Shown here one piece after another: positions 17,595-37,183 of a DNA stretch of 40,000 nt (its first letter is position 1; every line of letters starts with the position of its first letter). The stretch is from Gallionellaceae bacterium. GTDB lineage: Bacteria; Pseudomonadota; Gammaproteobacteria; Burkholderiales; Thiobacillaceae. The position numbers and the translations under genes were made by a program. Where the stretch lies: the NCBI GenBank assembly GCA_028714735.1, contig JAQTLU010000002.1:443840-483839 (forward strand). Reading direction: 5' to 3'. Below the pieces are notes generated by a model. That model was not told the origin of the DNA and did no database searches. It saw nothing but the letters and a program-made list of their open reading frames with translations.

Positions 17595-17693
17595 CGGGCG
17601 CGCCGGTCTCGGTACAGCGTTCAGCCGGTCCTGGACGGTCGCGGCGGGATGAACTGTTTGATTCGCCGGACAAAAGCGCGGCGCTGGTTTCCG

Positions 17694-17709
17694 TGGCATG
17701 GATCGTGCT
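17694..17709 (+). promoter_or_regulatory. Sigma-54 (-24/-12) promoter for fhcBADC
   Basis: The plus strand reads TGGCAT-GGATC-GTGCT with GG-N10-GC spacing. It shares TGGCATGGAT with the divergent mptG promoter. Confidence 0.7.
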
Positions 17710-20622: not shown

Positions 20623-21515
20623 TCGTCAACGGCATCCTGGTCGACGATACCTACGCCGAGGCCTTCGCCATGAAGGCCACCCGCATCATCATCACCGCGG
20701 ATTCCCTGACCTGGGCGAAACACGCCGCCAACGCGGCCTTCGGCTTCGCCACTTCGGTCATCGCCTGCGGCTGCGAGGCCGGCATCGAACAGGAACTGGC
20801 CCCGGAGGCTACGCCGGACGGCCGCCCCGGCGTGGCCGGCCTGCTGTTCGCCGTCTCCACCAAGGAGCTGGCCAAGCAGCTGGAGCGGCGGGTCGGCCAG
20901 TGCATCCTGACCTGCCCGTCCACGGCCGTGTTCGCCGGCTGCCAGGGGGAGGAGTCCCTGCCCCTGGGCAAAAACCTGCGCTATTTCGGCGACGGCTGGC
21001 AGGTCTCCAAGCTCGTGGCGGGCCGGCGTTACTGGCGCATCCCGGTGATGGACGGCGAGTTCCTGGCCGAGGAAAGCACCGGCCTGATGCGTTCGGTGGG
21101 CGGCGGCAACTTCCTGGTCCTGGCGCGCTCCCGCGGCCAGGCCCTGGCGGCCTGCGCGGCGGCAGCGGCGGCGATCGCCCGGGTGCCCGGCGCCATCGCC
21201 CCCTTTCCCGGCGGCGTGGTGCGCTCCGGCTCCAAGGTCGGCTCCAAATACAAAGCCCTGCCGGCGTCCACCAACGATGCCTATTGCCCCACCCTGCGCG
21301 GGGTTGCCAGGACCGCACTGTCGCCGGAGGTGGAGGCGGTGCTTGAGATCGTCATCGACGCGGTCACCGACGCCGACATGCGCGTGGCCATGAGGGCCGG
21401 CATGGACGCGGTCCTTGCCGTGGGCGCGGCCGGCGGCATCGTGCGCCTGTCGGCAGGGAATTACGGCGGCAAACTGGGCCAGTTCCATTACCCCCTGCGG
21501 GAGATACTGGCATGA
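20619..21515 (+). CDS. fhcD: Formylmethanofuran:tetrahydromethanopterin N-formyltransferase
   Basis: The ATG at 20619 overlaps the fhcA stop (ATGA). MIVNGILVDDTYAEAF…RIIITA is typical of the Ftr N-terminus. Confidence 0.9.
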   Translation: MIVNGILVDDTYAEAFAMKATRIIITADSLTWAKHAANAAFGFATSVIACGCEAGIEQELAPEATPDGRPGVAGLLFAVSTKELAKQLERRVGQCILTCPSTAVFAGCQGEESLPLGKNLRYFGDGWQVSKLVAGRRYWRIPVMDGEFLAEESTGLMRSVGGGNFLVLARSRGQALAACAAAAAAIARVPGAIAPFPGGVVRSGSKVGSKYKALPASTNDAYCPTLRGVARTALSPEVEAVLEIVIDAVTDADMRVAMRAGMDAVLAVGAAGGIVRLSAGNYGGKLGQFHYPLREILA

Positions 21516-22318
21516 GCGCCACGATCCTGACCTTGCGCGCGGGGTCCGCGGGCCGCATCGACATGAGCGGTGTGCTGCCCGAGACCACGGCCGGAAGATC
21601 GCCGGCGCAGATCGCCGCCATGACCGTCCGCCTGGATGGCCAAGCGGTGCCGCTGGGCGAGTTGTTCGAAGTGGGGCCGGACGTCGGCGAGGCGTTGCTG
21701 ATCCGCGCCGAAGCCGCGCGCCTGGATTGCCTGGGCCGGGACATGACCGGCGGCACCCTGCGGGTGCAGGGCCCGGCCGGCCATTATGCTGGCCAGGGCA
21801 TGCGCGGCGGTGAGCTGGTCATAACCGGCGATGCCGGGGATTTCGCCGCCAGCGGCATGCGCGGCGGTTTGCTGCGCGTCCACGGCAACGCCGGCGACTG
21901 GCTCGGCGCCGCCCTGATCGGCGAACGGACTGGCATGGCTGGAGGCGTGGTGGCGGTGGCCGGCGACGTCGGCGCGCGCTTGGGCGACCGCATGCGCCGC
22001 GGCCTGGTCCTGGTGCGCGGCCGGGCCGGCAACGCCTGCGGCGCGCGCATGCTGGCGGGCACCCTGGTGGTGGCGGGTGGTTGCGGCGATCTGGCCGGCT
22101 TCGCCCTGCGCCGCGGCTCCCTCATCCTGGGCCGGGCGCCGGACCGGCTGCCAGCCACATTCAACGATGCCGGCGTCGCCGACCTGACCTGGCTCGGACT
22201 GCTGCAGCGTCATGCCCAGGGCATCCTGCCGGATGTCGTGCCCGGCAGCGGGCGCATGCGGCGCCACATGGGCGACCTGGCGTTCGGCGGCAAGGGCGAA
22301 GTACTGGTGCCGGAATGA
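21512..22318 (+). CDS. fhcC: Formyltransferase/hydrolase complex subunit C (formylmethanofuran dehydrogenase subunit C homolog)
   Basis: 268 aa. It has the repeated G-x-x-M-x-G-G beta-helix repeats characteristic of FwdC (GQGMRGGELVITGDAGDF, ASGMRGGLLRVHGNAGDW). There is an ATGA overlap with fhcD. Confidence 0.9.
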   Translation: MSATILTLRAGSAGRIDMSGVLPETTAGRSPAQIAAMTVRLDGQAVPLGELFEVGPDVGEALLIRAEAARLDCLGRDMTGGTLRVQGPAGHYAGQGMRGGELVITGDAGDFAASGMRGGLLRVHGNAGDWLGAALIGERTGMAGGVVAVAGDVGARLGDRMRRGLVLVRGRAGNACGARMLAGTLVVAGGCGDLAGFALRRGSLILGRAPDRLPATFNDAGVADLTWLGLLQRHAQGILPDVVPGSGRMRRHMGDLAFGGKGEVLVPE

Positions 22319-22858: not shown

Positions 22859-23680
22859 ATGTTGCGCTGCGGCCGATTCCGCTTCGACCTGACCCGTCCC
22901 CTGGTGATGGGTATCGTCAATGCCACGCCGGATTCCTTTTCCGATGGCGGTCGCCATGCCACTGCCGAGCGCGCCATCGAGCACGGCCTGCGCTTGCGCC
23001 AGGAGGGGGCGGACATCCTCGACGTCGGCGGCGAATCCACCCGTCCCGGCGCCACGCCGGTCGGGGAGGATGAGGAACTGGCACGGGTGTTGCCGGTGCT
23101 GGCCGGCCTGCATGATTGCGGCGCCGCCCTGTCGATCGACACCATGAAGCCGCGCGTCATGGCGGCCGCCCTGGCGGCCGGAGCGGACATGATCAACGAC
23201 GTGAACGCCCTGCGTGCCGAGGCCGCCCTGGCGGCCGTGTCAGGCTCGGATTGCGGCATCTGCCTGATGCACATGCAGGGCACGTCGCAGACCATGCAGT
23301 TGGCGCCCGACTACGACGACGTGGTGGCCGAGGTTGCCGGCTTCCTGCACGAACGCATGAACGCCTTGCGCCAGGCCGGCATCGCCGGGGAGCGGATACT
23401 GATCGACCCCGGTTTCGGCTTCGGCAAGACGCCGGCGCACAACGTGGCGCTGTTCCGCGCGCTGCCCCATTTCGCCAAGCTGGCGCCGGTGCTGGTCGGC
23501 ATGTCGCGCAAGTCCCTGTTCGGCATACTCACCGGCAGGCCGGTGACGGAGCGGACCATCGCCAGCGTCGCCGCCGCCATGCTGGCGGCCATGCAGGGTG
23601 CCGCGATCCTGCGCGTGCACGACGTGGCCGCCACCATCGATGCTCTCAAGGTCCTGGAAACCCTGGGCCATGACCAATGA
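22859..23680 (+). CDS. folP: Dihydropteroate synthase
   Basis: GIVNATPDSFSDGG, DVGGESTRPGA, INDV and GFGFGKT are canonical DHPS motifs. The start at 22859 comes just after the upstream stop. Confidence 0.92.
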   Translation: MLRCGRFRFDLTRPLVMGIVNATPDSFSDGGRHATAERAIEHGLRLRQEGADILDVGGESTRPGATPVGEDEELARVLPVLAGLHDCGAALSIDTMKPRVMAAALAAGADMINDVNALRAEAALAAVSGSDCGICLMHMQGTSQTMQLAPDYDDVVAEVAGFLHERMNALRQAGIAGERILIDPGFGFGKTPAHNVALFRALPHFAKLAPVLVGMSRKSLFGILTGRPVTERTIASVAAAMLAAMQGAAILRVHDVAATIDALKVLETLGHDQ

Positions 23681-23703
23681 TTTTTTCCGAGAGGAGGATC
23701 GAC

Positions 23704-24138
23704 ATGCAGATTGCAAGGTTCCTGTTCGCCGCCGGCCTAGTGGTCTCCAACCTGGCGCCGGCCGCCGGCATCAAGGTTGAAAACGCCTGGTTGATGGCCA
23801 CCCTGCCGGGCCAGAAGGTGGCGGGCGGGTTCATGGATATCACCGCCGAGCAGGACATGGCGCTGGTGGGCGCCAGCAGCCCGGTGGCCCAGGCCGTGGA
23901 ACTGCATCGCATGCGCATGGCCGACGGCGGCATGGAAGTGCGCGCGTTCAAGTCCCTCCGCCTGCCCAAGGGCAAGACCGTCAACCTGGCGCCCAGCGGC
24001 CTGCATGCCATGCTGATCGGACTCAAGGCGCCGATCAAGGCCGGCGATCTGGTGCCCATGTCCCTGGCATTCGACGACGGTCACGGCGGGACCGCCAGCC
24101 TGGACGTGACCCTCAAGGCGGCAACGCGGCTCTATTGA
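23704..24138 (+). CDS. Periplasmic copper chaperone PCu(A)C (DUF461)
   Basis: The ATG at 23704 is preceded by GAGAGGAGGA. There is a signal-peptide-like N-terminus, and the Cu(I) motif pattern H-x-M…M…GGLHAML is present. Confidence 0.8.
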   Translation: MQIARFLFAAGLVVSNLAPAAGIKVENAWLMATLPGQKVAGGFMDITAEQDMALVGASSPVAQAVELHRMRMADGGMEVRAFKSLRLPKGKTVNLAPSGLHAMLIGLKAPIKAGDLVPMSLAFDDGHGGTASLDVTLKAATRLY

Positions 24139-24986: not shown

Positions 24987-25811
24987 TTAATCCGAAACGT
25001 GTTCAGGGTGGCTGTACAGGGTGTAGCGTCCGGGCCGGACGAATCCGGCCAGACACAGGCCGGTCTCACTGGCCAGACGGATGGCGAAGCCGGTCGGGGC
25101 CGAGACTGCCGCCAGCAGGGCGATGCCGCATCCCGCCGCCTTTTGCACCATCTCGAAGCTGGCGCGGCTGGTGACCAGGGCGAAGCCGTCGTCCGGTCGG
25201 ATGCCCTGGCGGGCCATGGCGCCGAGAAGCTTGTCCAGGGCGTTGTGCCGGCCGACATCCTCGCGCACCGCCAGCAGCTTGCCGGCGCGGTCGGCCCAGG
25301 CCGCGGCATGGACGCCGCCAGTGCTGGCATGCAGGGGTTGCATGCCGTCGAGCTGGCTCAGGGCCCGCTGCAGCGCCGTAGCCGGGATCGCGCTGCCGGG
25401 GGGCGCGAGCCGTGGCAAGGAGCGGGCGACCTGATCCAGGCTTTCGACCCCGCACAGGCCGCAACCGGTACGTCCGGCCAGGGCACGGCGGCGGGTCTTG
25501 AGGGCAGCGAAACGGCGCTGGGCGATGCGCATCTGCACCACCACGCCTTGCGGCCCGGCCTGCAACGCCAACTCGTAGAGTTCCCCGGCCTGCTCCAGGA
25601 TGCCTTCGCTGAGGCTGAAACCCAGGCCGAAGTCCTCCAGGTCGGCCGGGCTGGCCAGCATCACCGCATGGGCGATGCCGTTGTAGGCCAGGGCCACGGG
25701 CACCTCCTCCGGCACCGTGTCCATGTGCGCACCCCCGCTCCCGTGCACGGGGGTCGTCACCAGGGGCGCGGGGAAAATCAAGGCCGACTCGGGCAGGTCA
25801 AACTGGCGCAT
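24987..25811 (-). CDS. fdhD: Formate dehydrogenase accessory sulfurtransferase FdhD
   Basis: 274 aa of the FdhD family (…VALAYNG…, GRTGCGLCG, TSRASFEMVQKA). Confidence 0.9.
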   Translation of the reverse strand: MRQFDLPESALIFPAPLVTTPVHGSGGAHMDTVPEEVPVALAYNGIAHAVMLASPADLEDFGLGFSLSEGILEQAGELYELALQAGPQGVVVQMRIAQRRFAALKTRRRALAGRTGCGLCGVESLDQVARSLPRLAPPGSAIPATALQRALSQLDGMQPLHASTGGVHAAAWADRAGKLLAVREDVGRHNALDKLLGAMARQGIRPDDGFALVTSRASFEMVQKAAGCGIALLAAVSAPTGFAIRLASETGLCLAGFVRPGRYTLYSHPEHVSD

Positions 25812-28659
25812 CGGCTGCCTTCGTCCCGCTCCGGTCCTTCAGCAGGGCGGCTTGCTCCGCGCTGAAGCGGGCGTACTGCTGCTGCCATGCCGAGACCTGC
25901 TCCACCCTGGAGACCTGCACTGCGGTTACCTTGTATTCGGGGCAGTTGGTTGCCCAGTCCGAGTTTTCCGTGGTCACCACGTTGGCGCCCGAGCCGGGCC
26001 AATGGAAGGTGGTATAGACCACGCCTGGCTGCATGCGCTCGCTGATCTTCGCCCGCAGCACGGTTTCGCCGGCGCGGCTTGCCACGCCGACCCGGTCGCC
26101 GTCCCGTATGCCGCGGTCCTCGGCGTCCACCGGGTGCAGTTCGAGCAGGTCCTCGGGGTGCCATACGGTGTTGGCCGTGCGCCGGGTCTGGGCGCCCACG
26201 TTGTACTGGGACAGGATGCGGCCGGTGGTGAGCAGCAGGGGGAAGCGGCGGTTGACGCGCTCGTCGGTGGCGACGAACTCGGTCAGCATGAAGCGACCCT
26301 TGCCGCGCACGAACTCCGTCTCGTGCAGGGTGGGGGTGCCGGACGGATGTGCCTCGTTGCAGGGCCACTGGATGCTGCCCAGTTCTTCCAGCCGAGCATA
26401 GCTGACGCCATGGAAGCTGGGCGTGAGCCGGGCGATCTCGGCCATGATCTCGGCCGGGTCGGCATAGTGCATGGGGTAGCCGAGGGCGTTGGCCAGCATC
26501 TGGGTCACCTCCCAATCGGCATGGCCGGCCAGGGGGGGCATCACCTTGCGGACGCGGGAAATTCGCCGCTCCGCGTTGGTGAAGGTGCCGTCCTTTTCGA
26601 GGAAACTGGCCCCGGGCAGAAATACATGGGCGAACTTGGCGGTTTCGTTCAGGAACAGGTCCTGCACGACCAGGCATTCCAGCGCCTCCATGGCGGCGGT
26701 GACGTGCCGGGTGTTGGGGTCCGATTGCGCGATGTCCTCGCCCTGTACATAGAGGCCCTTGAAACTGCCGCCGATGGCGGCGTCGAACATGTTGGGGATG
26801 CGGAGCCCGGGTTCGCCGGACAGGGGCACGCCCCAGGCGGCCTCGAACTGCTTGCGGGTGGCTTCGTCGGAGACATGGCGGTAACCGGGCAGTTCGTGCG
26901 GGAAGGAGCCCATGTCGCAGGAGCCCTGGACGTTGTTCTGGCCGCGCAACGGGTTCACGCCGACGCCGGGACGGCCGATGTTGCCGGTGGCCATGGCCAG
27001 GTTGGCGATGCCCATGACCATGGTGGAGCCCTGGCTGTGCTCGGTTACGCCCAGGCCGTAGTAGATGGCGCCGTTGCCGGCCGTGGCGTAGAGCCTGGCG
27101 GCGGCGCGCAGCTCGGTCGCCGCCACGCCGGTCACGGCGGCGGTGGCCTCCGGGCTGTGGCGCGGATCGGCGATGAACGCCCGCCACTTGGCGAAGGGCT
27201 CGGCCTCGCAGCGTGCGGCCACGAAGGCCTCGTCCAGCAGGTTCTCGTCGACGATGACATGGGCCAGGGCGTTCACCAGGGCCACGTTGGTGCCCGGCCT
27301 GAGTTTCAGGTGCTGGCTGGCGCGGACGTGGGGCGTGTCTACCAGGTCGATGGCGCGGGGATCGACGACGATCAGCTTGGCCCCCTGGCGCAGACGTTGT
27401 TTCAGGCGGGAGCCGAATACCGGATGGCCGTCGGTAGGATTGGCGCCGATGACCAGGACCACGTCGGCCTGCATGACCGAATCGAAATCCTGGGTGCCGG
27501 CGGATTCCCCCAGGGTCTGTTTCAGGCCGTAGCCGGTGGGGGAGTGGCAGACCCGCGCGCAGGTATCGACATTGTTCACCCCGAAGGCCGCGCGGGTCAG
27601 TTTCTGCACCAGGTAGGTTTCCTCGTTGGTGCAGCGGGATGAGGTGATGGAACCGACGGATTCGGCGCCATATTTTTCCTGCAGGCGGCGGAATTCGGCG
27701 GCGGCATGGTTGATGGCGGCCTCCCAGCTGACGGCCTGCCATGGCTCGTGGATGGAACTGCGGATCATGGGGGTGGTGATGCGATCGGCATGGGTGGCAT
27801 AGCCCCAGGCGAAACGTCCCTTGACGCAGGCATGGCCGCGGTTGGCGCCACCGGCCGGATTCGGCACCATGCGGATCACCCTGTCGCCCTGCAATTCGGC
27901 GTCCAGGGCGCAGCCGACACCGCAGTAGGCGCAGGTGGTGGTGACGCTGCGCCGGGGTTGGCCCAGTTCGATGACCGATTTCTCCATCAGGGCGGCGGTC
28001 GGGCAGACGGCCACGCAGGCGCCGCAGGAGACGCATTCGGAGGCCAGGAAGTCGTCGCCACCGGCGGCGGCGATGCGGGTGTCGAAGCCCCGCTCGGTGG
28101 TGGTCAGGGCGAAGCTGCCCTGGATGTCGCTGCAGGCGCGCACGCAGCGGGAGCAGACGATGCACTTGGCCGGGTCGTAGGCGAAATAGGGGTTGGAGGT
28201 GTCCGCGGCTTCAGTCAGATGGTTGGCGCCGTCGGCAAAACGCACCTCGCGCAGACCGACCCGGCCGGCCATATCCTGCAACTCGCAGTTGCCGTTGGCG
28301 GCACAGGTGAGGCAGTCCAGCGGGTGGTCGGAGATGTACAGTTCCATGACGCCCCGGCGCAGACGGAACAGGGCATCGCTTTGGGTCGCCACCTGCATGC
28401 CCTCCTCCACCAGGGTGGTGCACGAGGCCGGGTAGCCGCGCCGGCCCTTCACCTCGACCACGCACAGGCGGCAGGAGCCGAAGGCTTCCAGTTGCTCGGT
28501 GGCGCACAGCCTGGGGATGTCGACGCCAGCCTCGGCCGCGGCATGCATGACGGAGGTGCCGGCCGGCACGGTGACGGTCATGCCGTCGATGCTCAGGGTG
28601 ACTTGCCGGCTGGAAACCCGTGCCGGGGTGCCGCGGTCGTGATGGCTATGCATGCTCAT
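25798..28659 (-). CDS. fdsA: NAD-dependent formate dehydrogenase alpha subunit (molybdopterin, Fe-S)
   Basis: Start at MSMHSHH (28659) overlaps the fdsB stop (ATGA). It has an N-terminal 2Fe-2S/4Fe-4S cysteine region followed by a molybdopterin oxidoreductase body. Upstream of that start, the 1030-aa track ORF overlaps the 3' end of fdsB in a different frame. Confidence 0.92.
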   Translation of the reverse strand: MSMHSHHDRGTPARVSSRQVTLSIDGMTVTVPAGTSVMHAAAEAGVDIPRLCATEQLEAFGSCRLCVVEVKGRRGYPASCTTLVEEGMQVATQSDALFRLRRGVMELYISDHPLDCLTCAANGNCELQDMAGRVGLREVRFADGANHLTEAADTSNPYFAYDPAKCIVCSRCVRACSDIQGSFALTTTERGFDTRIAAAGGDDFLASECVSCGACVAVCPTAALMEKSVIELGQPRRSVTTTCAYCGVGCALDAELQGDRVIRMVPNPAGGANRGHACVKGRFAWGYATHADRITTPMIRSSIHEPWQAVSWEAAINHAAAEFRRLQEKYGAESVGSITSSRCTNEETYLVQKLTRAAFGVNNVDTCARVCHSPTGYGLKQTLGESAGTQDFDSVMQADVVLVIGANPTDGHPVFGSRLKQRLRQGAKLIVVDPRAIDLVDTPHVRASQHLKLRPGTNVALVNALAHVIVDENLLDEAFVAARCEAEPFAKWRAFIADPRHSPEATAAVTGVAATELRAAARLYATAGNGAIYYGLGVTEHSQGSTMVMGIANLAMATGNIGRPGVGVNPLRGQNNVQGSCDMGSFPHELPGYRHVSDEATRKQFEAAWGVPLSGEPGLRIPNMFDAAIGGSFKGLYVQGEDIAQSDPNTRHVTAAMEALECLVVQDLFLNETAKFAHVFLPGASFLEKDGTFTNAERRISRVRKVMPPLAGHADWEVTQMLANALGYPMHYADPAEIMAEIARLTPSFHGVSYARLEELGSIQWPCNEAHPSGTPTLHETEFVRGKGRFMLTEFVATDERVNRRFPLLLTTGRILSQYNVGAQTRRTANTVWHPEDLLELHPVDAEDRGIRDGDRVGVASRAGETVLRAKISERMQPGVVYTTFHWPGSGANVVTTENSDWATNCPEYKVTAVQVSRVEQVSAWQQQYARFSAEQAALLKDRSGTKAADAPV

Positions 28660-30218
28660 GCCGTTTTCTCCACGGGCCTGGGCGCCAGGCCGAAGTCTTC
28701 CGGATAGTTGTCGAGGGCAGACAGGACCGGGTAGGGGGTCATGCCGCCCATGGCGCACAGCGAGCCCTCCAGCATGGTCTGGCAGAGGTCGCGCAACAGG
28801 GTGTCGTCGTTGCTCCGCTGCGGGCGCCGGGCCAGCATGGCGTCCAGCAATTCCACGCCGCGCACCGAGCCGATGCGGCAGGGCGTGCATTTGCCGCAGG
28901 ATTCCTGGGCACAGAAGGCCATGGCGTAGCGGGCCATCCCGGCCATGTCCACCGTATCGTCGAAGGCGACGATGCCGCCATGGCCGACCGTGGCCCCGAC
29001 GGCGGCAAAGGCTTCGTAATCCAGAGGCAGGTCGAAGCGGGACTCGGGCAGGTAGGCGCCCAGTGGTCCGCCCACCTGTACTGCGCGGATGGGCCGGCCG
29101 CTGGCCGAGCCGCCGCCGTAGTCATGCAGGAGTTCCCTCAGGCTGACGCCGAACGGGGCCTCCACCAAGCCAGGCCGCTTCAGGTTGCCGGCCAGTTGGA
29201 ACGGCAGGGTGCCCCTGGAGCGACCGCAGCCGTAGGCCGCGTAGGCCGCACCGCCATGGGCCAGAATCCAGGGCACGCTGGCCAGGGTGATGACATTGTT
29301 CACCACCGTGGGTTGCCCGAACAGGCCCTGCAACGCCGGCAGGGGCGGTTTGGCGCGCACCAGACCGCGCTTGCCCTCGATGCTTTCCAGCAGGGCGGTT
29401 TCCTCGCCGCATACGTAGGCGCCGGCGCCCTTGAACAGATGCAGATCGAAGCGGCGACCGCTGCCCAGCACGTTATCGCCCAGCAGCCCCTCCCGGGTGG
29501 CCCCGGCAATGGCCGCCTGCAAGATTTTCCAGGCATCCGGGTATTCGGAACGCAGATAGATGTAGCCGGTGTCGGCGCCCACGGCCAGGCCGCAGATGAG
29601 CATGCCTTCGATCAGGCTGTAGGGGTCGCCTTCCATCAGCATGCGGTCGGAGAAGGTGCCGGAGTCGCCTTCATCCGCGTTGCAGACGACGTATTTTCGG
29701 TCGCTGCCGGCATTCAGCACGGTGCGCCACTTGATCCCGGTGGGAAACCCCGCACCGCCGCGGCCGCGCAGGCCGGCGCTGTCGATGGTGTCGATGATGG
29801 CCTCCGGGGCCATGGCCAGGGCCTTGTGCAGGCCCGTCAGGCCGCCGTTGCTGCGGTAGGCCTCCAGTGATACCGGGTCGTCAAGCCCGAGGCGGGCAAA
29901 GACCAGGCGCGTCTGCCGCGCCAGTTGCGGGATGCTGTCGGTGGGGCCCAGGCACAGCGGATGCGTTCCGCCAGTCAGCCAGCCGGCTGCAAACAGGTCG
30001 GGCACATCCTCCGGTGCGACCGGCCCGTAGGCGATGCGGGTGCCGTTCGCTGCCACTTCGATCATGGGTTCGAGCCAGAAGAGACCGCGCGAGCCGTTCC
30101 GCACGATGGCCACTTCCTGGCCCAGGCGGCGGGCTTCCGCCGCCACGGCTTCAGCGGTCAGGTCGGCGCCGACGGAAACGGCGGCCGCATCGCCGGGGAT
30201 ATATAGGCGGGCGGTCAT
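28656..30218 (-). CDS. fdsB: NAD-dependent formate dehydrogenase beta subunit (NuoF-like, FMN/NAD binding)
   Basis: Start at MTARLYIPGD (30218) overlaps the fdsG stop. It has the NuoF motifs GLRGRGGAGFPTG and ESCGKCTPCR. Confidence 0.92.
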   Translation of the reverse strand: MTARLYIPGDAAAVSVGADLTAEAVAAEARRLGQEVAIVRNGSRGLFWLEPMIEVAANGTRIAYGPVAPEDVPDLFAAGWLTGGTHPLCLGPTDSIPQLARQTRLVFARLGLDDPVSLEAYRSNGGLTGLHKALAMAPEAIIDTIDSAGLRGRGGAGFPTGIKWRTVLNAGSDRKYVVCNADEGDSGTFSDRMLMEGDPYSLIEGMLICGLAVGADTGYIYLRSEYPDAWKILQAAIAGATREGLLGDNVLGSGRRFDLHLFKGAGAYVCGEETALLESIEGKRGLVRAKPPLPALQGLFGQPTVVNNVITLASVPWILAHGGAAYAAYGCGRSRGTLPFQLAGNLKRPGLVEAPFGVSLRELLHDYGGGSASGRPIRAVQVGGPLGAYLPESRFDLPLDYEAFAAVGATVGHGGIVAFDDTVDMAGMARYAMAFCAQESCGKCTPCRIGSVRGVELLDAMLARRPQRSNDDTLLRDLCQTMLEGSLCAMGGMTPYPVLSALDNYPEDFGLAPRPVEKTA

Positions 30219-30655
30219 GATTGATCGATCTCGTCCAGCAGGGTATCGAGCCGTTCCGCGCTGACCCGGCCTAGCAGCTTGCCATTCACCATCATGGCCG
30301 GAGAGCAGGCGCAGTTGCCCAGGCAATAGGCGGCTTCCAGGGTGTAGGCGCCGTCCCGGGTGGTTTCTCCGAAGGCGATGCCAAGTCGCTGGCTGGCATG
30401 TCCGGCCAGCGCGTCCGCGCCCATCGCCTGGCACGATTCGGCGCGGCAGATCAGGAGCTGGCTGCGTCCCGGTGGGGTGCGCCGGAAGTCGTGATAGAAG
30501 CCGATCACGCCGATGATGTCCGCCTGCGACAGGTTGTGGATCTTGGCCAGTTGGGCGATGGCATGGTCCGGGATGTAGCCATGCTCCTCTTGCAGCCGGT
30601 GCAGGGCCGGCAGCAACCCGGATGGGTCGGCGCCAGGATGTGTCTGTTCGGGCAT
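30215..30655 (-). CDS. fdsG: NAD-dependent formate dehydrogenase gamma subunit (NuoE-like 2Fe-2S)
   Basis: Start at MPEQTHP (30655). It has the NuoE-type pattern LLPALHRLQEEHGYIP…CRAESC…CLGNCACSP. The upstream in-frame extension would run through the predicted promoter. Confidence 0.88.
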   Translation of the reverse strand: MPEQTHPGADPSGLLPALHRLQEEHGYIPDHAIAQLAKIHNLSQADIIGVIGFYHDFRRTPPGRSQLLICRAESCQAMGADALAGHASQRLGIAFGETTRDGAYTLEAAYCLGNCACSPAMMVNGKLLGRVSAERLDTLLDEIDQS

Positions 30656-30689: not shown

Positions 30690-30705
30690 AGCAAGTCGCA
30701 TGCCA
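30690..30705 (-). promoter_or_regulatory. Sigma-54 (-24/-12) promoter for fdsGBA-fdhD-fdsD-folK
   Basis: The minus strand reads TGGCAT-GCGAC-TTGCT with exact GG-N10-GC spacing. The element ends about 35 nt upstream of the fdsG ATG. Confidence 0.75.
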
Positions 30706-30803: not shown

Positions 30804-30818
30804 GTGACAGTCTGTCAC
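30804..30818. promoter_or_regulatory. Perfect palindrome GTGACA-GTC-TGTCAC, a candidate enhancer-binding-protein site shared by the fds and mtoX promoters
   Basis: It has the same half-sites and spacing as the 17576-17594 palindrome, and is also preceded by GC. It is centred about 107 bp from the fds -24 element and about 143 bp from the mtoX -24 element. Confidence 0.65.
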
Positions 30819-30850: not shown

Positions 30851-30865
30851 GCGACAAAATGTCAC
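30851..30865. promoter_or_regulatory. Near-palindromic third copy GCGACA-AAA-TGTCAC, plus a downstream half-site CAGTCTGTCAC at 30877-30887
   Basis: There is one mismatch to GTGACA-N3-TGTCAC, and it is followed by GC as in the 17.5-kb copy. The 11-mer CAGTCTGTCAC at 30877-30887 is identical to 30808-30818. Both lie 70-100 bp upstream of the mtoX -24 element. Confidence 0.5.
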
Positions 30866-30952: not shown

Positions 30953-30968
30953 TGGCACGGTTGCTGCT
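30953..30968 (+). promoter_or_regulatory. Sigma-54 (-24/-12) promoter for the mtoX operon
   Basis: The plus strand reads TGGCAC-GGTTG-CTGCT with GG-N10-GC spacing, about 100 nt upstream of the mtoX ATG. It is preceded by an AT-rich tract (ATATGTAACTATTAATTGTG). Confidence 0.7.
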
Positions 30969-31065: not shown

Positions 31066-32454
31066 ATGACTAAATGCAATAAACGCAATTCCATCAAGAC
31101 CCTGGCGGCGGCAATTTCCGCCGCGGTGGCTTTGGCCGTGACGGCCCTTCCTGCCACCAGTATTGCCGACGAAACCAGTTGTTCCCCCTTCACCCCCCTC
31201 ATCAAGGGACAGGAAGACTTCGTCTATGTCTGGACCCTGGGCGTGGAAGGGCTTGGCGACGGTTCCGACAAGTTGGTGACCGTGGATGTGAACCCCAAGT
31301 CGAAGAATTACGGCAAGGTCATCAACAGCCTGTCGGTAGGCGGCCGCAACGAAGCACACCACATCGGCCTGTCCGATGATCGTCGCTACGTCTGGGGTGG
31401 CGGTCTGGACAGCAGTCATATCTTCATCTTTGATGTCGCCACCGACCCGGCCAAGCCGAAACTGGTCAAGGTCATCAAGGACTTCGTAGAGAAATCCGGC
31501 GGTATCGTCGGTCCCCATACCTTTTACGCCGCCCCCGGCCGCATGATCATCACCGGCCTGTCCAACAACCAGGACCACGGCGGTGTGACGGCCCATGTCA
31601 TCTACAACAACAAGGGCGACTACATCAAGACCGTGCAAGTCCCCACCGGCGAGGTCGGCGGGGCGATGGGCGATGGCTACAACTATGACGTCGCCATCAA
31701 CCCGCGCAAGAACGCGATGCTGTCCACGTCGTTCACCGGCTGGAACAATTACATGATGGACCTGGGCAAGATGGTGAAGGATCCGGAGGCGATGAAGCAC
31801 TTCGGCAACACCTCCGTCATGTGGGACTTCAAGACCATGAAGCCCATCAAGGTGTTCAGTACCCCGGGCGCGCCCCTGGAGGCGCGCTGGAACTGGGGCA
31901 AGGGGGACGACTTCGCTGTGACCACCACGGCGCTGACCTCCAACATCTGGGTGTTCAAGCAGGATGACAAGAAGGAATGGCAGGCCCATAACGTGGGGAC
32001 CATCGGCAATCCGGCCGATATCCCGCTGCCGGTCGATATCTCCATGGCCGCGGACGGCAAGGCCATGTGGATCAATACCTTCATGGATGGAACCACGCGC
32101 TTCTGGGACTTTTCCAACCCGATGAAGCCGAAGGAAGTCTATACGAAGAAGATCGGCTCCCAGGTCAATATGGTGTCCCAAAGCTATGACGGCAAGCGCG
32201 TCTACTACACCTCTTCGCTGCTCGGCAACTGGGACAAGAAGGGCAAGGACGACGAGCAGTTCCTGAAGATGTACAACTGGGACGGCAAGGACCTGAAGCT
32301 CGGCTTCGAGATCGATTTCTACAAGGAAAAGCTCGGTCGCGCCCACCATATGAAGTTCCAGGCTCGCAACATGAATACGCTGCGGCCGCTACATGCTGAA
32401 GCGGACAGGCTGGACAGCGTGCGTCTGGCTAGCACCGAAACGCCTGCCAAGTAA
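31066..32454 (+). CDS. mtoX: Selenium-binding-protein (SBP56) family protein, methanethiol oxidase type
   Basis: 462 aa. The ATG is preceded by CAGGAG. A Sec-type signal peptide is present (MTKCNKRNSIKTLAAAISAAVALAVTALPATSIA/DE). SBP56-like beta-propeller sequence runs throughout. It is followed by SCO1/SenC and MauG-like genes, the context reported for mtoX in Hyphomicrobium sp. VS. Confidence 0.85.
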   Translation: MTKCNKRNSIKTLAAAISAAVALAVTALPATSIADETSCSPFTPLIKGQEDFVYVWTLGVEGLGDGSDKLVTVDVNPKSKNYGKVINSLSVGGRNEAHHIGLSDDRRYVWGGGLDSSHIFIFDVATDPAKPKLVKVIKDFVEKSGGIVGPHTFYAAPGRMIITGLSNNQDHGGVTAHVIYNNKGDYIKTVQVPTGEVGGAMGDGYNYDVAINPRKNAMLSTSFTGWNNYMMDLGKMVKDPEAMKHFGNTSVMWDFKTMKPIKVFSTPGAPLEARWNWGKGDDFAVTTTALTSNIWVFKQDDKKEWQAHNVGTIGNPADIPLPVDISMAADGKAMWINTFMDGTTRFWDFSNPMKPKEVYTKKIGSQVNMVSQSYDGKRVYYTSSLLGNWDKKGKDDEQFLKMYNWDGKDLKLGFEIDFYKEKLGRAHHMKFQARNMNTLRPLHAEADRLDSVRLASTETPAK

Positions 32455-32458
32455 TCTG

Positions 32459-33208
32459 ATGGTCCTTCCTCGCAACGGCCTCTTGAAGGCTTTACACCTC
32501 CCCTTCTGGGGGGGTGTTTTTTTTCTCCTGCTGCAGTCTTTCGGGATTCACTGGGCCCATGCCGCGTCACCCGACAACAGCCTGAAAGCAATCGAAACCG
32601 CCGATACGGTCGTGCCGGATTATGTGCCGCCCAGACCGGGCAGCTATGAGCTCATGCGGATCATGACGGCTGCCGATGGCGAGGTGCTGGATGTGGATGG
32701 CAAGCCGAGGCACCTGTCCGAATTCACGGGCGGCAAGGTGACACTGCTGTCATTCATCTATTCCACCTGTGCCGATCCCAACGGCTGCCCCTATGCCTAC
32801 CAGGTTTTCCATAACCTGAAAAACCGCCTGGCAAAAGAGCCCAGACTGCATGGCAAGGTGCGCCTGGTAAGCCTCTCTTTCGATCCGAAACGGGATACCC
32901 CCGAGATGCTGAGGCTGTATGCCGGCGACAACGCGCTGCCCAATCAGCCCGTACAATGGGATTTTCTGACCACGGCCTCCTACAAGGAATTGATGCCCAT
33001 CCTGGACAGTTTTGGCCAGGATGTTTTTATCGAACTGGACCCGGTCACGCAACAGCCTTTGGGTACCCTGAACCATGTGCTCAAGGTCTTCCTCATCGAT
33101 CGTGAGCGCGTGGTGCGCGAGATCTATACAACCGTCTATCTCCAGCCCGATGTGACCTACAACGACATTCTCACCCTCCTGATCGAACAGGGAATCGAAC
33201 TGCCATGA
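32459..33208 (+). CDS. SCO1/SenC-family copper chaperone (thioredoxin fold) with atypical Cys spacing
   Basis: Start at MVLPRNG, 4 nt after the mtoX stop, with an N-terminal hydrophobic anchor. The motif is FIYSTCADPNGCPY (C-x5-C where SCO1 normally has CxxxC), and a downstream NHVLKVFLID histidine block is present. Confidence 0.8.
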   Translation: MVLPRNGLLKALHLPFWGGVFFLLLQSFGIHWAHAASPDNSLKAIETADTVVPDYVPPRPGSYELMRIMTAADGEVLDVDGKPRHLSEFTGGKVTLLSFIYSTCADPNGCPYAYQVFHNLKNRLAKEPRLHGKVRLVSLSFDPKRDTPEMLRLYAGDNALPNQPVQWDFLTTASYKELMPILDSFGQDVFIELDPVTQQPLGTLNHVLKVFLIDRERVVREIYTTVYLQPDVTYNDILTLLIEQGIELP

Positions 33209-34401
33209 TCTTTTCCCGGGCCTTGTTCTGGCTGCCCATCGGCGTTTTCTATGCCTCATGGGCTTTTGCCCTGGGTACGCCGGTCAACCTCGAGGTGCCC
33301 CTGGGATTGCCGCCTCTGACGGTGCCTGCGGTCAACCCCCTGACCAAGGAGAAGATCGACCTGGGCCGCCGTTTGTTCATGGACCGGCGTCTGTCCCACA
33401 ACAACACCATGTCCTGCGCGATGTGCCATGTGCCCGAGCAGGGCTTCACCTCCCATGAACTGGGTACGGCCATCGGACTGGAAGGTCGCAGCCTGCGGCG
33501 CAACTCCCCGACGATTTACAACGTGGGCTACCAACGCTCCCTGTTCCACGAAGGGCGCGAGCCGCATCTGGAAGACCAGGTCTGGGGACCCTTGCTGACC
33601 AAGGTGGAAATGGACATGCCGTCGATCGGCTATGTGGTCGAGAAGGTACGGCAATTGAAGGAGTACGAAGGTCTGTTCGAAGCCGCTTTCGGCGGGCCGG
33701 TCAACGCCGAGCGCATCGGCCAGGCCCTGGCCAGTTGGGAGCGCACCATGATTTCCGGCAACTCCCGATTCGACCGCTGGTTCTACGGCGGCCAGAGGGA
33801 TGTGCTGAATGCGGAAGAGCAATTGGGTTTTCAGGTCTTCACTGGCAAGGGGCACTGTTCCACCTGCCACCTGATCGGGGAGAAATCCGCCTTGTTCACC
33901 GATCATAAATTCCACAACACCGGATTGGGCTGGGAACGCACCATGTTCCCCGAGCGCAACAACTACCGGGTACAACTCGCCCCCGGCATCTTCGTCCAGG
34001 TGATGGGCTCACTCCTGAAGTCATTCGAGCCGCCCCAGGCCGACGTCGGGCGCTATGAGGTCACCATCGATACCAAGGACCGCTGGGCCTACAAGACCCC
34101 CGTCCTGCGCAACGTGGCGGTCACCCAGCCTTATATGCACGACGGCTCCCTGTCGACGCTGGAGGATGTCGTCGAGTTCTACGACAAGGGCGGTATCGAC
34201 AACGACAACAAGTCGCCACTGCTGCAACCGCTCAAGCTGAGCAGCGCGGAAAAAGCCGCGCTGGTGGCCTTCATGAAGACCCTGACCGGGGATAACCTGG
34301 CGGCGTTGACGCACGACGCGCGGATGGCACCGGCTTCGCCGCCCAGTCTGGAGCAAGACCCCTCCGACGCCTATATGGATGCCATCGCCGTCTATCCCTG
34401 A
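33205..34401 (+). CDS. Di-haem cytochrome c peroxidase / MauG-family protein
   Basis: 398 aa with a signal-like N-terminus and two haem c motifs, CAMCH and CSTCH. The CCP/MauG-type sequence includes …PVLRNVAVTQPYMHDGS…. There is an ATGA overlap with the SCO1 gene. Confidence 0.88.
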   Translation: MIFSRALFWLPIGVFYASWAFALGTPVNLEVPLGLPPLTVPAVNPLTKEKIDLGRRLFMDRRLSHNNTMSCAMCHVPEQGFTSHELGTAIGLEGRSLRRNSPTIYNVGYQRSLFHEGREPHLEDQVWGPLLTKVEMDMPSIGYVVEKVRQLKEYEGLFEAAFGGPVNAERIGQALASWERTMISGNSRFDRWFYGGQRDVLNAEEQLGFQVFTGKGHCSTCHLIGEKSALFTDHKFHNTGLGWERTMFPERNNYRVQLAPGIFVQVMGSLLKSFEPPQADVGRYEVTIDTKDRWAYKTPVLRNVAVTQPYMHDGSLSTLEDVVEFYDKGGIDNDNKSPLLQPLKLSSAEKAALVAFMKTLTGDNLAALTHDARMAPASPPSLEQDPSDAYMDAIAVYP

Positions 34402-34449
34402 GCGATGCGAAAGATGCAGCAAGCTGCGCCGAAACCGAAAGGAGTTTCC

Positions 34450-34983
34450 TTGAGCGACATCGTTTTCAAAACCGGCGAGGCCACCGTGCTCGCCGCGGAA
34501 GGCCAGTACACCGACGCCATGCCGGAAATCCTGATCGGCCGGGTCGACGGCCCGGTCGGCCATGCCTTTGCCAGCATGATGGGCCAGAGCGCGGGCCATA
34601 CCCGGATGTTTGCGATCCGTGCCTGCAACCAGCAAGTGCGTCCCGCGACCCTGATGGTGCCCAAGGTCACCATGAAGAGCATGGCCTACGTGGAACTGTT
34701 CGGCGGCACGGTGCAAGCCGCGACAGCAGACGCCGTGCTGGACAGCGTCATCGAAGGCGTCCTGCCCCGGGATCAGGTCAACGAACTGTGCATCGTCAGC
34801 CTGGTGTGGATCGATCCACGCTGCGCTACGGATGGCAACCTTGATCACCAGGACCTCTATCGCACCAATTACGAGGCGACCAAGCTGGCGATCCGGCGCG
34901 CCCTCAACGATGAACCCTCCATCGACGAACTGATCGCCAACCGGCATGTCATCAGGCACGACCTGTTCGTGCCTGATACCTGA
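34450..34983 (+). CDS. Divergent formaldehyde-activating-enzyme (Fae) paralog
   Basis: It aligns by eye along its whole length to the fae product at 10958-11470 (GE..V…, NYEATK conserved). The TTG start at 34450 has an AAAGGAG SD 5 nt upstream and gives an N-terminus co-linear with Fae. The alternative ATG at 34405 lacks an SD. Confidence 0.75.
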   Translation: MSDIVFKTGEATVLAAEGQYTDAMPEILIGRVDGPVGHAFASMMGQSAGHTRMFAIRACNQQVRPATLMVPKVTMKSMAYVELFGGTVQAATADAVLDSVIEGVLPRDQVNELCIVSLVWIDPRCATDGNLDHQDLYRTNYEATKLAIRRALNDEPSIDELIANRHVIRHDLFVPDT

Positions 34984-35039
34984 GCAGGCAGGGCTGCGCC
35001 GCCGGGCATAATGCATGCCCCTGTCCGAGATGTTTTCCG

Positions 35040-36503
35040 ATGAAGAATGAAGATGCCCCCCAGGAAAGCCTGGATCCGCAGGATTGGGAGGCCATGCTCG
35101 CCCTGGCCCATCGCATGGTGGACGATAGTTTTGCCCGGCTTCGCGGCGTGGCGGAGCAGCCGGTGTGGCGCGCGCCGCCCCCGGACCTGACGGACCGTTT
35201 CACGCTGTCCGCACCTCGCTTGCCCCAGGCGCCGGAAGCCGTGTACCGGGAGTTTTGCCAGTACATCCAGCCCTATCCCATGGGCAATACGCATCCCCGG
35301 TTCTGGGCCTGGTTCATGGGCAACGGCACGCCTTTCGCCGCGCTGGCGGATTTCCTTGCCTCGGTCATGAACACGAACCTGGGCGGCGGCAACCATGCTG
35401 CGCCCCTGGTGGAGCGGCAGGTCATCGATTGGGTGAAAGAGATGCTCGGTTTTCCTGCCGGGGCGAGCGGTTTGCTCGTAAGTGGCGCCTCCATGGCCAA
35501 TTTCATCGGTCTGGCTGTGGCCCGGCACGTCAAGGCGGGATTCGACGTGCGTGCTCAGGGCATGGCCGCGGCAAGCCGGCCGATGGTCGTCTATGCCTCC
35601 GCCGAGGCGCACGGCAGCAATCAGAAGGCGGCGGAAATGCTCGGCTTCGGCAGCCGGCATTTCCGCCGGATTGCGGTTCGCGAAGACTACGCGATCGATG
35701 TGGACGCCCTGGCCGCTGCCATCGCCGCCGACCGTGCGGCCGGGCGGCAACCGGTCTGCGTCATCGGCAGTGCCGGTACGATCAACACCGGCGCGATAGA
35801 CGACCTGGACGCCTTGGCCGATCTTTGTCGGGACGAGGCGATCTGGTTTCATGTCGACGGTGCCATCGGCGCCGTGGCCGTGCTGGCGGAGTCGGCGCGG
35901 GCCCGACTGGCCGGGTTGGAACGGGCCGACTCGATCGCCCTGGATTTGCATAAATGGATGCACATGCCGTTCGAGGTGGGCTGCATCCTGATCCGGGACC
36001 AGGCCAGCCATCGCCGGGCCTTCGAACTGGCTGTGGACTACCTGGAAACCCGGGAACGGGGCCTGGCCGCGGCGCAGCCATGGTTCATGGAGTACGGTCT
36101 GCAGACTTCGCGTCAGTTCCGTGCCCTGAAGGTATGGATGTCGTTCAAGGAGCATGGCCTGGACCGCTACGGCCGTCTCATCGAGCGCAACATTGCCCAG
36201 GCCCGCTATCTGTGCAGTCTGGTAGAGGCCTCGCCAGCACTTGAATTGATGGCGCCGGTGAGCCTGGATATCGTCTGCTTTCGCTATAACCCGGGCGGCA
36301 TGGACGGCGTCGAGCTGGATCAGGTCAATCTGGAGATCATGATGCGCCTGCAGGAGGAGGGTGTCGCCGCCCTCTCGGACACCTCCCTGAAGGGCATGCG
36401 CTGCCTTCGGGTGGCCATCGCCAACCACCGCAGCCGCCGGGAGGATTTCGACTTGCTGGTAGCGGCGATACTGCAATGGGGGCAGACCTTGCGCACGGAC
36501 TAG
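35040..36503 (+). CDS. Group II pyridoxal-phosphate-dependent decarboxylase (aromatic amino acid / tyrosine decarboxylase-like)
   Basis: 487 aa. It has SGASMANFIGLAVAR and the PLP-lysine block DLHKWMHMPFEVGCILIRD. The substrate cannot be read from the sequence. Confidence 0.85.
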   Translation: MKNEDAPQESLDPQDWEAMLALAHRMVDDSFARLRGVAEQPVWRAPPPDLTDRFTLSAPRLPQAPEAVYREFCQYIQPYPMGNTHPRFWAWFMGNGTPFAALADFLASVMNTNLGGGNHAAPLVERQVIDWVKEMLGFPAGASGLLVSGASMANFIGLAVARHVKAGFDVRAQGMAAASRPMVVYASAEAHGSNQKAAEMLGFGSRHFRRIAVREDYAIDVDALAAAIAADRAAGRQPVCVIGSAGTINTGAIDDLDALADLCRDEAIWFHVDGAIGAVAVLAESARARLAGLERADSIALDLHKWMHMPFEVGCILIRDQASHRRAFELAVDYLETRERGLAAAQPWFMEYGLQTSRQFRALKVWMSFKEHGLDRYGRLIERNIAQARYLCSLVEASPALELMAPVSLDIVCFRYNPGGMDGVELDQVNLEIMMRLQEEGVAALSDTSLKGMRCLRVAIANHRSRREDFDLLVAAILQWGQTLRTD

Positions 36504-36525: not shown

Positions 36526-36554
36526 TTGACAGTGGCATGGCCAGGCAATAAATT
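36526..36554 (+). promoter_or_regulatory. Sigma-70-type promoter of the TetR gene (TTGACA-17 nt-TAAATT)
   Basis: There is a perfect -35 hexamer at 36526-36531, a 17-nt spacer and the -10 hexamer TAAATT at 36549-36554. It lies 30 nt upstream of the TetR ATG. Confidence 0.6.
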
Positions 36555-36569
36555 AGAACGATCGTTCTA
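36554..36569. promoter_or_regulatory. 16-bp perfect palindrome TAGAACGATCGTTCTA, a probable TetR operator
   Basis: It lies directly between the -10 hexamer and the TetR start codon (36584). It is AT-rich relative to its surroundings. Confidence 0.65.
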
Positions 36570-36583: not shown

Positions 36584-37183
36584 ATGAGTCATGTGCTTTC
36601 ACCGCGTCCGGATACCCGTTTCCTGGTCCTGGACACGGCGCTGACATTGTTCACCGAACGTGGTTTTTTCAGCACGTCGGTGCACGATATCAGTCGCGAG
36701 GCAGGGGTGAGCATCGGTTCCATCTACCATCACTTCGGCGACAAGGAAGGCGTCGCAAGCGCGCTGTACGAGCAACTCGGAGCGCGCATGGAGGGGCTCA
36801 TCAGCGAGATCCGGCGTCGTCACACTACTGCCCATGACCAGGCGATGGAACTGGTCTCCCGATTGTTCCAGCTGACCGAGTCCGAGCCTCGTGCCATGGA
36901 ATTCATGCTCTACGCCAAGCATCGTGAGTTCCTCCCCCGCCAGGGGCCGGTCTGCTCCTCGCGTCCGTTCGTGTTGATGCGGGAAATCGTCAGCATGGGC
37001 ATGGAACGTGGCGAGATCCGTCCGATGGACACGCTGATCGCTTCCGCGAGCTTGTTCGGCGGCCCATTGCGTATGATCACCGGTCGTCTGGACGGCCTGG
37101 TGGACAAGCCTTTGCCGGAATGTCTCGACGCAGTCTGGGCATGTGCCTGGCGCGCCGTCGCAATGGCGGCGCCGGCGCCATGA
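36584..37183 (+). CDS. TetR/AcrR-family transcriptional regulator
   Basis: 199 aa with an N-terminal TetR HTH (LDTALTLFTERGFFSTSVHDISREAGVSIGSIYHHFGDKEG). Confidence 0.9.
   Translation: MSHVLSPRPDTRFLVLDTALTLFTERGFFSTSVHDISREAGVSIGSIYHHFGDKEGVASALYEQLGARMEGLISEIRRRHTTAHDQAMELVSRLFQLTESEPRAMEFMLYAKHREFLPRQGPVCSSRPFVLMREIVSMGMERGEIRPMDTLIASASLFGGPLRMITGRLDGLVDKPLPECLDAVWACAWRAVAMAAPAP

Follow-up and report, generated by a model that had tools for sequence, protein, structure and literature searches.

Conserved linkage of a putative sigma-54-dependent methanethiol oxidation operon to genes of tetrahydromethanopterin-dependent formaldehyde oxidation in Thiobacillaceae

The sulfur cycle has one of its major links in the turnover of methanethiol and dimethyl sulfide (DMS), and Thiobacillus-type bacteria are recognized degraders. 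How such methanethiol and DMS degraders dispose of the toxic formaldehyde that they produce has not been worked out. A locus of a Gallionellaceae bacterium (GenBank assembly GCA_028714735.1), a sulfur-oxidizing betaproteobacterium, bears on this question. On a 40,000-nucleotide stretch of contig JAQTLU010000002.1 (positions 443,840 to 483,839), hereafter the window, five same-strand genes (31066-36503, +) encode a methanethiol oxidase (MtoX), a SCO1-type protein, a MauG-like protein, a protein homologous to formaldehyde-activating enzyme (Fae), and a decarboxylase. A preliminary description had proposed these five gene identities and the limits of the unit from the sequence, and profile searches show both to be right. 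Are the five genes one functional unit and, if so, what is its connection to the formaldehyde and formate oxidation genes nearby? We read the locus, with moderate confidence and from comparative sequence analysis, as a sigma-54-dependent methanethiol oxidation operon wired into formaldehyde oxidation via tetrahydromethanopterin (H4MPT) and methylofuran.

First, we focus on the oxidase and its putative maturation factors. The mtoX gene (31066-32454, +; ATG after GGAGA) encodes a predicted SBP56-family Cu-dependent methanethiol oxidase of 462 amino acids, which scores 735.7 bits against the equivalog model NF052453 (MthilOxMtoX; cut-off 650) and 130 bits against PF05694. The protein carries NEAHHIG, GPHTFYA, RAHHMKF, TGWNNY, and SLLGNWD, i.e., the His/Trp motifs of Figure S12 in Eyice et al. 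(2018), where His (H89/90, H140, H412) and Trp (W211, W374) are the proposed Cu ligands or cofactor precursors of MtoX (PMC5739008). Its N-terminus (MTKCNKRNSIKTLAAAISAAVALAVTALPATSIA/DE) resembles a Sec signal by inspection only, with the segment ending in SIA/DE. The second gene (32459-33208, +; PF02630) encodes a SCO1/SenC-type copper chaperone of 249 amino acids with a C-x5-C motif (CADPNGC). In the SCO proteins encoded with mtoX in Thiobacillaceae and Ruegeria, this spacing (CADPNGC or CGDVNGC; noted in the window and at L101 8313-9023, related loci being cited here by L numbers) replaces the usual CxxxC, which the SCO protein of Skermanella retains. The third gene (33205-34401, +) encodes a MauG-like di-heme cytochrome c peroxidase of 398 amino acids (PF03150, 180 bits) that has two CxxCH motifs and lies below the cut-offs of the MbnH and MauG models. 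The trio agrees in gene content and order with the published arrangement, as the preliminary description had claimed, and MtoX passes the equivalog model.

Divergent from mtoX, and separated from it by an intergenic region of 410 nucleotides, lies the NAD-linked formate dehydrogenase operon fdsG-fdsB-fdsA-fdhD (30655-24987, −). Its genes were recognized by Pfam matches and their starts were adjusted to homolog lengths (fdsG 30215-30655; fdsB 28656-30218; fdsA 25798-28659; fdhD 24987-25811). According to profile searches, the stretch from 1.3 to 22.3 kb consists of H4MPT, methylofuran, and fhc genes: H4MPT/methylofuran biosynthesis genes, the canonical fae, mch, and mtdB lie within 1.3-17.5 kb and fhcB-A-D-C at ~17745-22318 (+), followed by folP, a gene for a PCuAC copper chaperone, and folK. 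Within the five-gene unit, the gaps are 4, −4 (an overlap), 48, and 56 nucleotides with revised gene starts, a small correction of the 3-56 nucleotides given before.

The arrangement is not confined to this genome. A near-identical contig of a metagenome-assembled genome (MAG) shows the same gene order as the window. A fae homolog with 85-90% identity lies 3' of mtoX-SCO1-mauG in several Thiobacillus-type contexts, and the trio is followed by this gene, fae2, in 8/10 Thiobacillus/Thiobacillaceae-type species representatives in GTDB, including T. thioparus DSM 505 and T. denitrificans DSM 12475. Homologs of the decarboxylase with 66-78% identity occur in Parasulfuritortus cantonensis and on several metagenomic and MAG contigs, where fdsG, fdsB, and fdsA are divergent from mtoX-SCO1-mauG-flavoprotein-[fae]-[yjdI]-decarboxylase. 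All six examined contexts of these homologs that have upstream sequence contain mtoX. The recurrent order in Thiobacillaceae is mtoX-SCO1-mauG-(flavoprotein)-fae2-(yjdI ferredoxin)-(decarboxylase or FCSD), and the window holds a reduced version of it, without the flavoprotein and the YjdI ferredoxin. Because the five-gene arrangement recurs in independent genomes, it is not due to chance. In the mtoX neighborhoods examined, a comparison of the kind proposed in the preliminary description finds both the fae homolog and the decarboxylase kept next to mtoX in Thiobacillaceae. Each of the two genes can accompany mtoX without the other: T. thioparus has fae but no decarboxylase, and in P. cantonensis, the decarboxylase gene directly follows the flavoprotein gene of the mtoX cluster and no fae is present there. 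Neither a fae homolog nor the decarboxylase was found in the two plasmid-borne mtoX contexts that we inspected.

The proximity to H4MPT, fhc, and fds genes, which had also been pointed out before, is present in the window, and the fds link is conserved among its relatives. Furthermore, Mch homologs and the mtoX clusters share scaffolds in T. thioparus (by matching scaffold lengths) and P. cantonensis, and therefore the H4MPT cofactor pathway is present alongside the cluster. Two features of the related clusters are missing from the window. Between mauG and fae2, nine loci (L014, L015, L017, L019, L023-L025, L031, L099) encode a flavoprotein of 437-440 amino acids of the pyridine-nucleotide-disulfide-oxidoreductase family with weak similarity to SQR and TIGR03169. 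Downstream, related clusters have convergent genes for a rhodanese, a GcvH-like protein, a dihydrolipoyl dehydrogenase, and OsmC.

The promoter sequences suggest how these operons might be connected. A sigma-54 (−24/−12) promoter, TGGCACGgttgCTGCT (TGGCAC-N5-CTGC; 30953-30968, +), is predicted 98 nucleotides before the mtoX start codon, and an equivalent element lies 95-105 nucleotides before mtoX in 12/14 related loci. A second predicted sigma-54 promoter, TGGCATGCGACTTGCT (30690-30705, −), faces fdsG and recurs in 8/9 fds-adjacent loci, including L014, L015, L017, L019, L024, L031, and L099. The intergenic region contains two further sites. The palindrome GTGACAGTCTGTCAC (30804-30818) is a candidate site for an enhancer-binding protein; L023 has an identical copy, flanked by its divergent sigma-54 promoters for fhc and mtdB, and L014, L019, and L024 contain related palindromes. 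The second site, GCGACAAAATGTCAC (30851-30865; consensus GACAAWWTGTCAC), is found upstream of mtoX in 10/14 loci, including loci without fds, and its consensus matches the window six times compared with 0.86 expected matches. Of the regulation proposed in the preliminary description, the sigma-54 promoter stands and is conserved, whereas the enhancer supposed to be shared with the formate dehydrogenase operon is a candidate: a conserved palindrome lies between the mtoX and fdsG promoters and might serve both.

The same architecture is repeated at 17510-17709 of the window, between the mtdB-mch-fae operon and fhcBADC. Here, two divergent sigma-54 promoters (17525-17510, −; 17694-17709, +) flank the central palindrome GTGACACTGTGTCAC (17578-17592), which is the same type of site as in the fds/mtoX intergenic region; this arrangement is also found in L023. 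As the two divergent sigma-54 pairs share their palindrome architecture, all four operons (mtoX, fds, fhc, and mtdB...fae) probably form one sigma-54 regulon. A candidate activator of this putative regulon is the product of the gene at 66-1337 (+), a sigma-54-dependent enhancer-binding protein with AAA+ and HTH_8 domains, the N-terminus of which may run off the window. Sigma-54 promoters also precede the fhc-fae2 operons of Rhodocyclales, several of which have an enhancer-binding protein homolog nearby; in Thauera-type loci, homologs of the 66-1337 protein (39-42% identity) are encoded 4 kb after these operons. The literature searched yielded no description of H4MPT genes controlled by sigma-54.

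A hairpin that resembles a terminator (10-bp G+C stem, tetraloop, and T8; 32494-32517, +) follows the mtoX stop codon by 40 nucleotides and thus sits in the 5' part of the SCO1 coding sequence, which encodes the signal peptide. It is kept 40-47 nucleotides after mtoX in L015, L017, L004, and L011 with compensatory changes in the stem. The hairpin probably acts as a partial terminator or attenuator, setting how strongly mtoX is expressed relative to the accessory genes, and the genes downstream would then be read through at a reduced level.

Next, we consider the Fae homolog (34450-34983, +; 177 amino acids). Its assignment to the Fae family in the preliminary description was correct, but the gene probably begins later than stated there (34405), as the length obtained from the TTG at 34450, which follows AAAGGAG, fits homologs of 177-180 amino acids. 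The protein scores 198.7 bits against PF08714 (cut-off 27) and 137.5 bits against TIGR03126 (cut-off 118.05). The window also encodes a canonical Fae (10958-11470, −; 170 amino acids; PF08714, 232.9 bits) that matches M. extorquens Fae (1Y5Y) with E = 1.8e-82. With 32% identity between the two proteins of the window, the homolog is indeed as divergent a paralog as had been proposed. Across the family, identity between the two classes is 30-35%, and the divergent class is itself tightly conserved (74-90% identity), with at least 570 loci among GTDB species representatives. The window protein is 69% identical to the product of the only Fae-like gene of the M. aquaticum plasmid pMaq22A_1p, which carries fae2 (Maq22A_1p31155), and deletion of fae2 slows growth of M. 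aquaticum on methanol (PMC7356819). Because of this match, we assign the Fae homolog by sequence to the known Fae2 class, an accessory of the H4MPT pathway.

The preliminary description regarded the Fae homolog as dedicated to methanethiol. This view does not hold. Among the best 80 of the at least 570 loci, which were sampled for their neighborhoods, 20 have the fae2-class gene directly 3' of fhcB-A-D-C without mtoX nearby. The genomes with this fhcBADC-fae2 order include Thauera, Aromatoleum, Azoarcus, Cupriavidus necator EM36, Derxia, Methylibium, and Roseateles (L039, L050, L055-L057, L059, L060, L067, L069, L070, L072, L073, L075, L084, L085, L087, L089, L090, L093, and L095; also L105), and the plasmid of Azoarcus KH32C has the same order in its own annotation. 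A gene that closes the fhcBADC operon in some 20 genomes of Rhodocyclales/Burkholderiales is not methanethiol-specific. As the fifth gene of this operon in many Rhodocyclales and Burkholderiales, fae2 is often accompanied by a sigma-54 promoter before the operon and an enhancer-binding protein gene ~4 kb after it. In Caballeronia, Paraburkholderia, and Methylococcaceae, the gene stands alone. A choice between the names Fae2 and Fae3 on the basis of the M. universalis paper was given up, as its text contains no sequences and the M. universalis contig L028 is uninformative. This contig, labeled as a Methyloversatilis universalis MAG, has a gene order around fae2 (YdbH-like, lipoprotein, DUF1318) equal to that of Methylocaldum (L007) and may be mis-binned.

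The last gene of the unit (35040-36503, +) encodes a group II pyridoxal phosphate (PLP) decarboxylase of 487 amino acids that resembles aromatic-L-amino-acid decarboxylases (PF00282, 207.7 bits); the preliminary description had named no function for it. In the alignment to 7xin and 4obu, its DLHKW motif with the PLP-binding lysine falls on their HKW. These DOPA/tryptophan decarboxylases are the closest solved relatives (E = 1e-66 and 1e-62), and cysteine sulfinate decarboxylases (E ~1e-39) and glutamate decarboxylases match far more weakly. No NCBI equivalog model is passed. The Tyr/Phe criterion in the catalytic loop, which distinguishes decarboxylases from aldehyde synthases, was left unused because the loop alignment to 7xin/4obu is ambiguous. 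Judged by these relatives, the product is most likely an arylethylamine. All Betaproteobacteria tested make tyramine-type methylofuran, the tyramine core of which requires a tyrosine decarboxylase; PF00282 candidates have been found in only half of the strains with this type, one of them adjoining a methanol dehydrogenase cluster (Hemmann et al., 2021; PMC8141765). In this window, MfnE-like (5027-5689), MfnF/Orf9-like (7014-8309), and MfnD-like (tyramine-glutamate ligase type; 8060-9055) genes, identified by profile searches, co-occur with the decarboxylase. Because Betaproteobacteria make tyramine-type methylofuran and the window has these three genes, our preferred, albeit tentative, reading is that the decarboxylase supplies tyramine for methylofuran; this is possible rather than probable.

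The gene identities and the conservation of synteny, promoters, and sites are directly shown; from them, we infer what the enzymes do, that the genes are co-transcribed, which protein is the activator, and which substrate the decarboxylase uses, as follows. MtoX would be exported to the periplasm, matured by the SCO1-type chaperone and the MauG-like di-heme protein, and would oxidize methanethiol to formaldehyde, sulfide, and H2O2. The formaldehyde would enter the cytoplasm and be condensed with H4MPT by canonical Fae and the presumably co-expressed Fae2-class protein. The C1 unit would then pass through MtdB, Mch, and the methylofuran-using Fhc complex to yield formate, which the divergently encoded FdsGBA would oxidize to CO2. 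The decarboxylase might form tyramine from tyrosine and so supply the core of the tyramine-type methylofuran that Betaproteobacteria make. The two divergent operon pairs, mtoX/fds and fhc/mtdB...fae, in which each operon has its predicted sigma-54 promoter and each pair surrounds a palindrome of the TGTCAC type, would be controlled by one enhancer-binding protein, for which the 66-1337 gene is the candidate, and the hairpin after mtoX would keep accessory-gene expression below the level of mtoX.

Several observations weigh against this model. In L099, a gene on the opposite strand divides fae-yjdI-decarboxylase from mtoX; together with the hairpin, this split weakens the case for strict co-transcription. 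T. thioparus-type clusters have fae but no decarboxylase. The best surviving alternative is that fae2 and the decarboxylase belong to a general H4MPT/methylofuran/fds island that serves any formaldehyde source and that the adjacency to mtoX reflects an accumulation of C1 genes. The split in L099 and the terminator-like hairpin 3' of mtoX are compatible with such an island, as are the fhcBADC-fae2 operons and stand-alone fae2 genes in genomes or contexts outside the mtoX cluster and the single type of upstream site that H4MPT, fhc, fds, and mtoX promoters have in common. However, the T. thioparus-type fae2 follows mtoX-SCO1-mauG even without adjacent fds or fhc genes, and the genes in the window are just 48 and 56 nucleotides apart. 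Moreover, a separate sigma-54 promoter for fae2 was considered and rejected, as none was seen upstream of the gene in the 15 loci examined. We regard the island as rather improbable and continue to favor an operon centered on methanethiol oxidation.

Does the Fae2-class protein catalyze the Fae reaction? The class has an invariant Met (Met24, in 13 family members) at the position of His22 in Fae, and the first 37 residues of the Fae2-class protein contain no His. His22 was reportedly proposed by Acharya et al. in 2005 as the acid catalyst of M. extorquens Fae; our literature search on His22 of Fae returned nothing. Because His22 is replaced by Met, the Fae2-class protein may not catalyze the Fae reaction and might have a different one. 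In addition, fae2 and fae3 mutants of M. universalis had no phenotype in the paper on this organism. An alternative is thus that the protein does not activate formaldehyde but is a regulatory or carrier protein, or one with other chemistry, that binds H4MPT or a related pterin, with the pairing to YjdI indicating a redox role. The low identity to Fae and the constant fae2-yjdI pairing in Thiobacillaceae are in line with this, yet the protein exceeds NCBI's Fae equivalog-domain cut-off, canonical Fae and the Fae2 class have the NYEATK motif and many core positions in common without variation, fae2 genes are located in fhc operons, fae2-deleted M. aquaticum shows reduced growth on methanol (PMC7356819), and the window lacks yjdI altogether. 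Hence, we consider a function other than formaldehyde activation unlikely and retain the Fae2-class protein as a putative second Fae.

The proposed role of the decarboxylase also faces contrary evidence. The enzyme scores 96.8 bits (E = 1e-27) against the MfnA model TIGR03812, far below the cut-off of 299.4. Most of its relatives outside Thiobacillaceae (48-66% identity) stand alone among neighbors of mixed kinds, and homologs occur in organisms such as Anaerolineales, which, to our knowledge, are not expected to have H4MPT. A survey of 80 metagenomic homologs, which yielded 86 neighbor proteins, revealed no dominant partner, and thus the context outside Thiobacillaceae leaves the substrate unfixed. 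In Ensifer adhaerens, a 52% homolog lies 3' of a gene for a CysK-like cysteine synthase with which it forms a two-gene unit, and a CysK-like gene also adjoins a 55% homolog in L148. In these two loci (L106 4844-7452, a plasmid of Ensifer adhaerens, and L148), the CysK-like paralog scores 346 bits at a cysK cut-off of 351, and the pair may form a two-step route to a beta-substituted ethylamine. The main alternative to tyramine supply is a sulfur amino acid substrate formed from methanethiol or sulfide and O-acetylserine (e.g., S-methylcysteine, cysteine, or cysteine sulfinate), decarboxylated to remove a by-product or to gain a protective amine and unrelated to methylofuran. Despite the CysK-like partners, the P. 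cantonensis gene directly after the flavoprotein without fae2, and the detectable relationship to cysteine sulfinate decarboxylases, we judge this quite unlikely since aromatic-amino-acid decarboxylases are closer relatives (1e-66 to 1e-62 compared with 1e-39), CysK-like neighbors are rare (PF00291, the PALP family that includes CysK, in 1/86), and strictosidine-synthase-like neighbors (3/86) point to arylethylamine products.

A more far-reaching version of the favored model can be drawn. The decarboxylase would be the missing, non-orthologous tyrosine decarboxylase and, with Fae2, mtoX, fds, fhc, and the H4MPT genes, would form one sigma-54 regulon under an undescribed C1/sulfur-responsive enhancer-binding protein that recognizes GTGACA-N3-TGTCAC. 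In this form, the proposal is speculative and on the unlikely side. If true, the path from methanethiol to CO2 in sulfur-oxidizing autotrophs would be complete and co-regulated, with its cofactor supplied on demand.

Some further features of the window deserve mention. PCuAC proteins usually partner SCO1 proteins in copper delivery. As the gene between folP and folK (23677-24138), 7 kb from mtoX, encodes a periplasmic copper chaperone of the PCuAC type, this protein may help to load MtoX with copper. The G+C content of the window is ~69% and falls to 58-64% from 30 kb on. In the window as well as in L014, L015, and L017, the mtoX cluster is ~6-7% lower in G+C than the adjacent fds genes (0.61 compared with 0.68), which suggests that the mtoX cluster is of different evolutionary origin, predating the divergence of these species. 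Downstream of the decarboxylase gene lies a gene for a TetR-family regulator (36584-37183, +) with a sigma-70-like promoter (36526-36554; TTGACA-17-TAAATT) that is overlapped by a perfect 16-bp palindrome, TAGAACGATCGTTCTA (36554-36569). A TetR operator at the mtoX promoter was considered, but the palindrome occurs only once in the window, before tetR, and control of mtoX by TetR is therefore not supported. The tetR gene was found in the near-identical contigs L001 and L002 only, and the other relatives are without it; it lies outside the conserved module and looks like a lineage-specific, autoregulated addition.

The function of Fae2 has been a question in methylotrophy for two decades. This locus and its ~15 relatives provide a testable gene set that comprises an oxidase with its maturation factors, a Fae2-class enzyme, a candidate tyramine-forming step, and a sigma-54 architecture. 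Its main value is a natural setting with cultured hosts (P. cantonensis, T. thioparus) for both Fae2 and the missing methylofuran decarboxylase.

How does the locus compare with known systems? The mtoX cluster of Hyphomicrobium sp. VS has the same order of mtoX, SCO1/senC, and mauG, and the window MtoX keeps the proposed Cu-ligand motifs (Eyice et al., 2018; PMC5739008). The window differs by the Fae2-class gene and the PLP decarboxylase, the divergent fdsGBA, and the predicted sigma-54 promoter, none of which is discussed in the main text of that study. In its Supplementary Table S7, however, the entries next to mtoX of two Thiobacillus genomes include a "formaldehyde activating enzyme" and an "FeS cluster protein YjdI", and those for Ruegeria include a glutathione-dependent formaldehyde dehydrogenase (PMC5739008). 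The preliminary description took the extension of the trio to be unpublished; this is not so for the fae part, whereas for the decarboxylase part no description was found. Likewise, the literature searched contains no description of the conserved fds divergence, the shared sigma-54/palindrome architecture, or the hairpin after mtoX. Accordingly, the trio and the Fae/YjdI genes beside Thiobacillus mtoX are already known, and the decarboxylase, the fds link, and the putative regulon are undescribed in the literature searched.

In T. thioparus DSM 505 and T. denitrificans DSM 12475, fae also follows mtoX, SCO1, and mauG and encodes a protein 88% identical to the Fae2-class protein of the window. 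Unlike in the window, which has neither yjdI nor the flavoprotein gene, the fae of these strains is followed by the YjdI ferredoxin and FCSD or other genes, and a LysR gene is located upstream; a decarboxylase and adjacent fds genes are absent. A precedent for coupling to formaldehyde handling is the operon SPOA0268-0272 of Ruegeria pomeroyi DSS-3, which resembles the window in adding a gene of this kind to mtoX-SCO-mauG and is induced by methanethiol (PMC5739008). There, the extension is a glutathione-dependent formaldehyde dehydrogenase, encoded by the last gene, and the regulator belongs to the IclR family, whereas the window appears to be H4MPT-linked and under sigma-54 control. With M. 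extorquens Fae (1Y5Y) and Fae2 of M. aquaticum 22A, the window protein shares the Pfam family and the length, passes TIGR03126, and is 69% identical to the M. aquaticum gene product; from canonical Fae, it differs by its 32% identity and by Met in place of His22. The decarboxylase resembles MfnA and the candidate bacterial mfnA products as a PF00282 protein that is detectable by the MfnA model and encoded in a betaproteobacterium with MfnD-, MfnE-, and MfnF-like genes. In contrast to MfnA itself, it stays far below the MfnA cut-off and is closer to DOPA/tryptophan decarboxylases. Finally, just as Mfla_2033 adjoins mxa, the window decarboxylase adjoins genes for a putative periplasmic, formaldehyde-producing oxidase.

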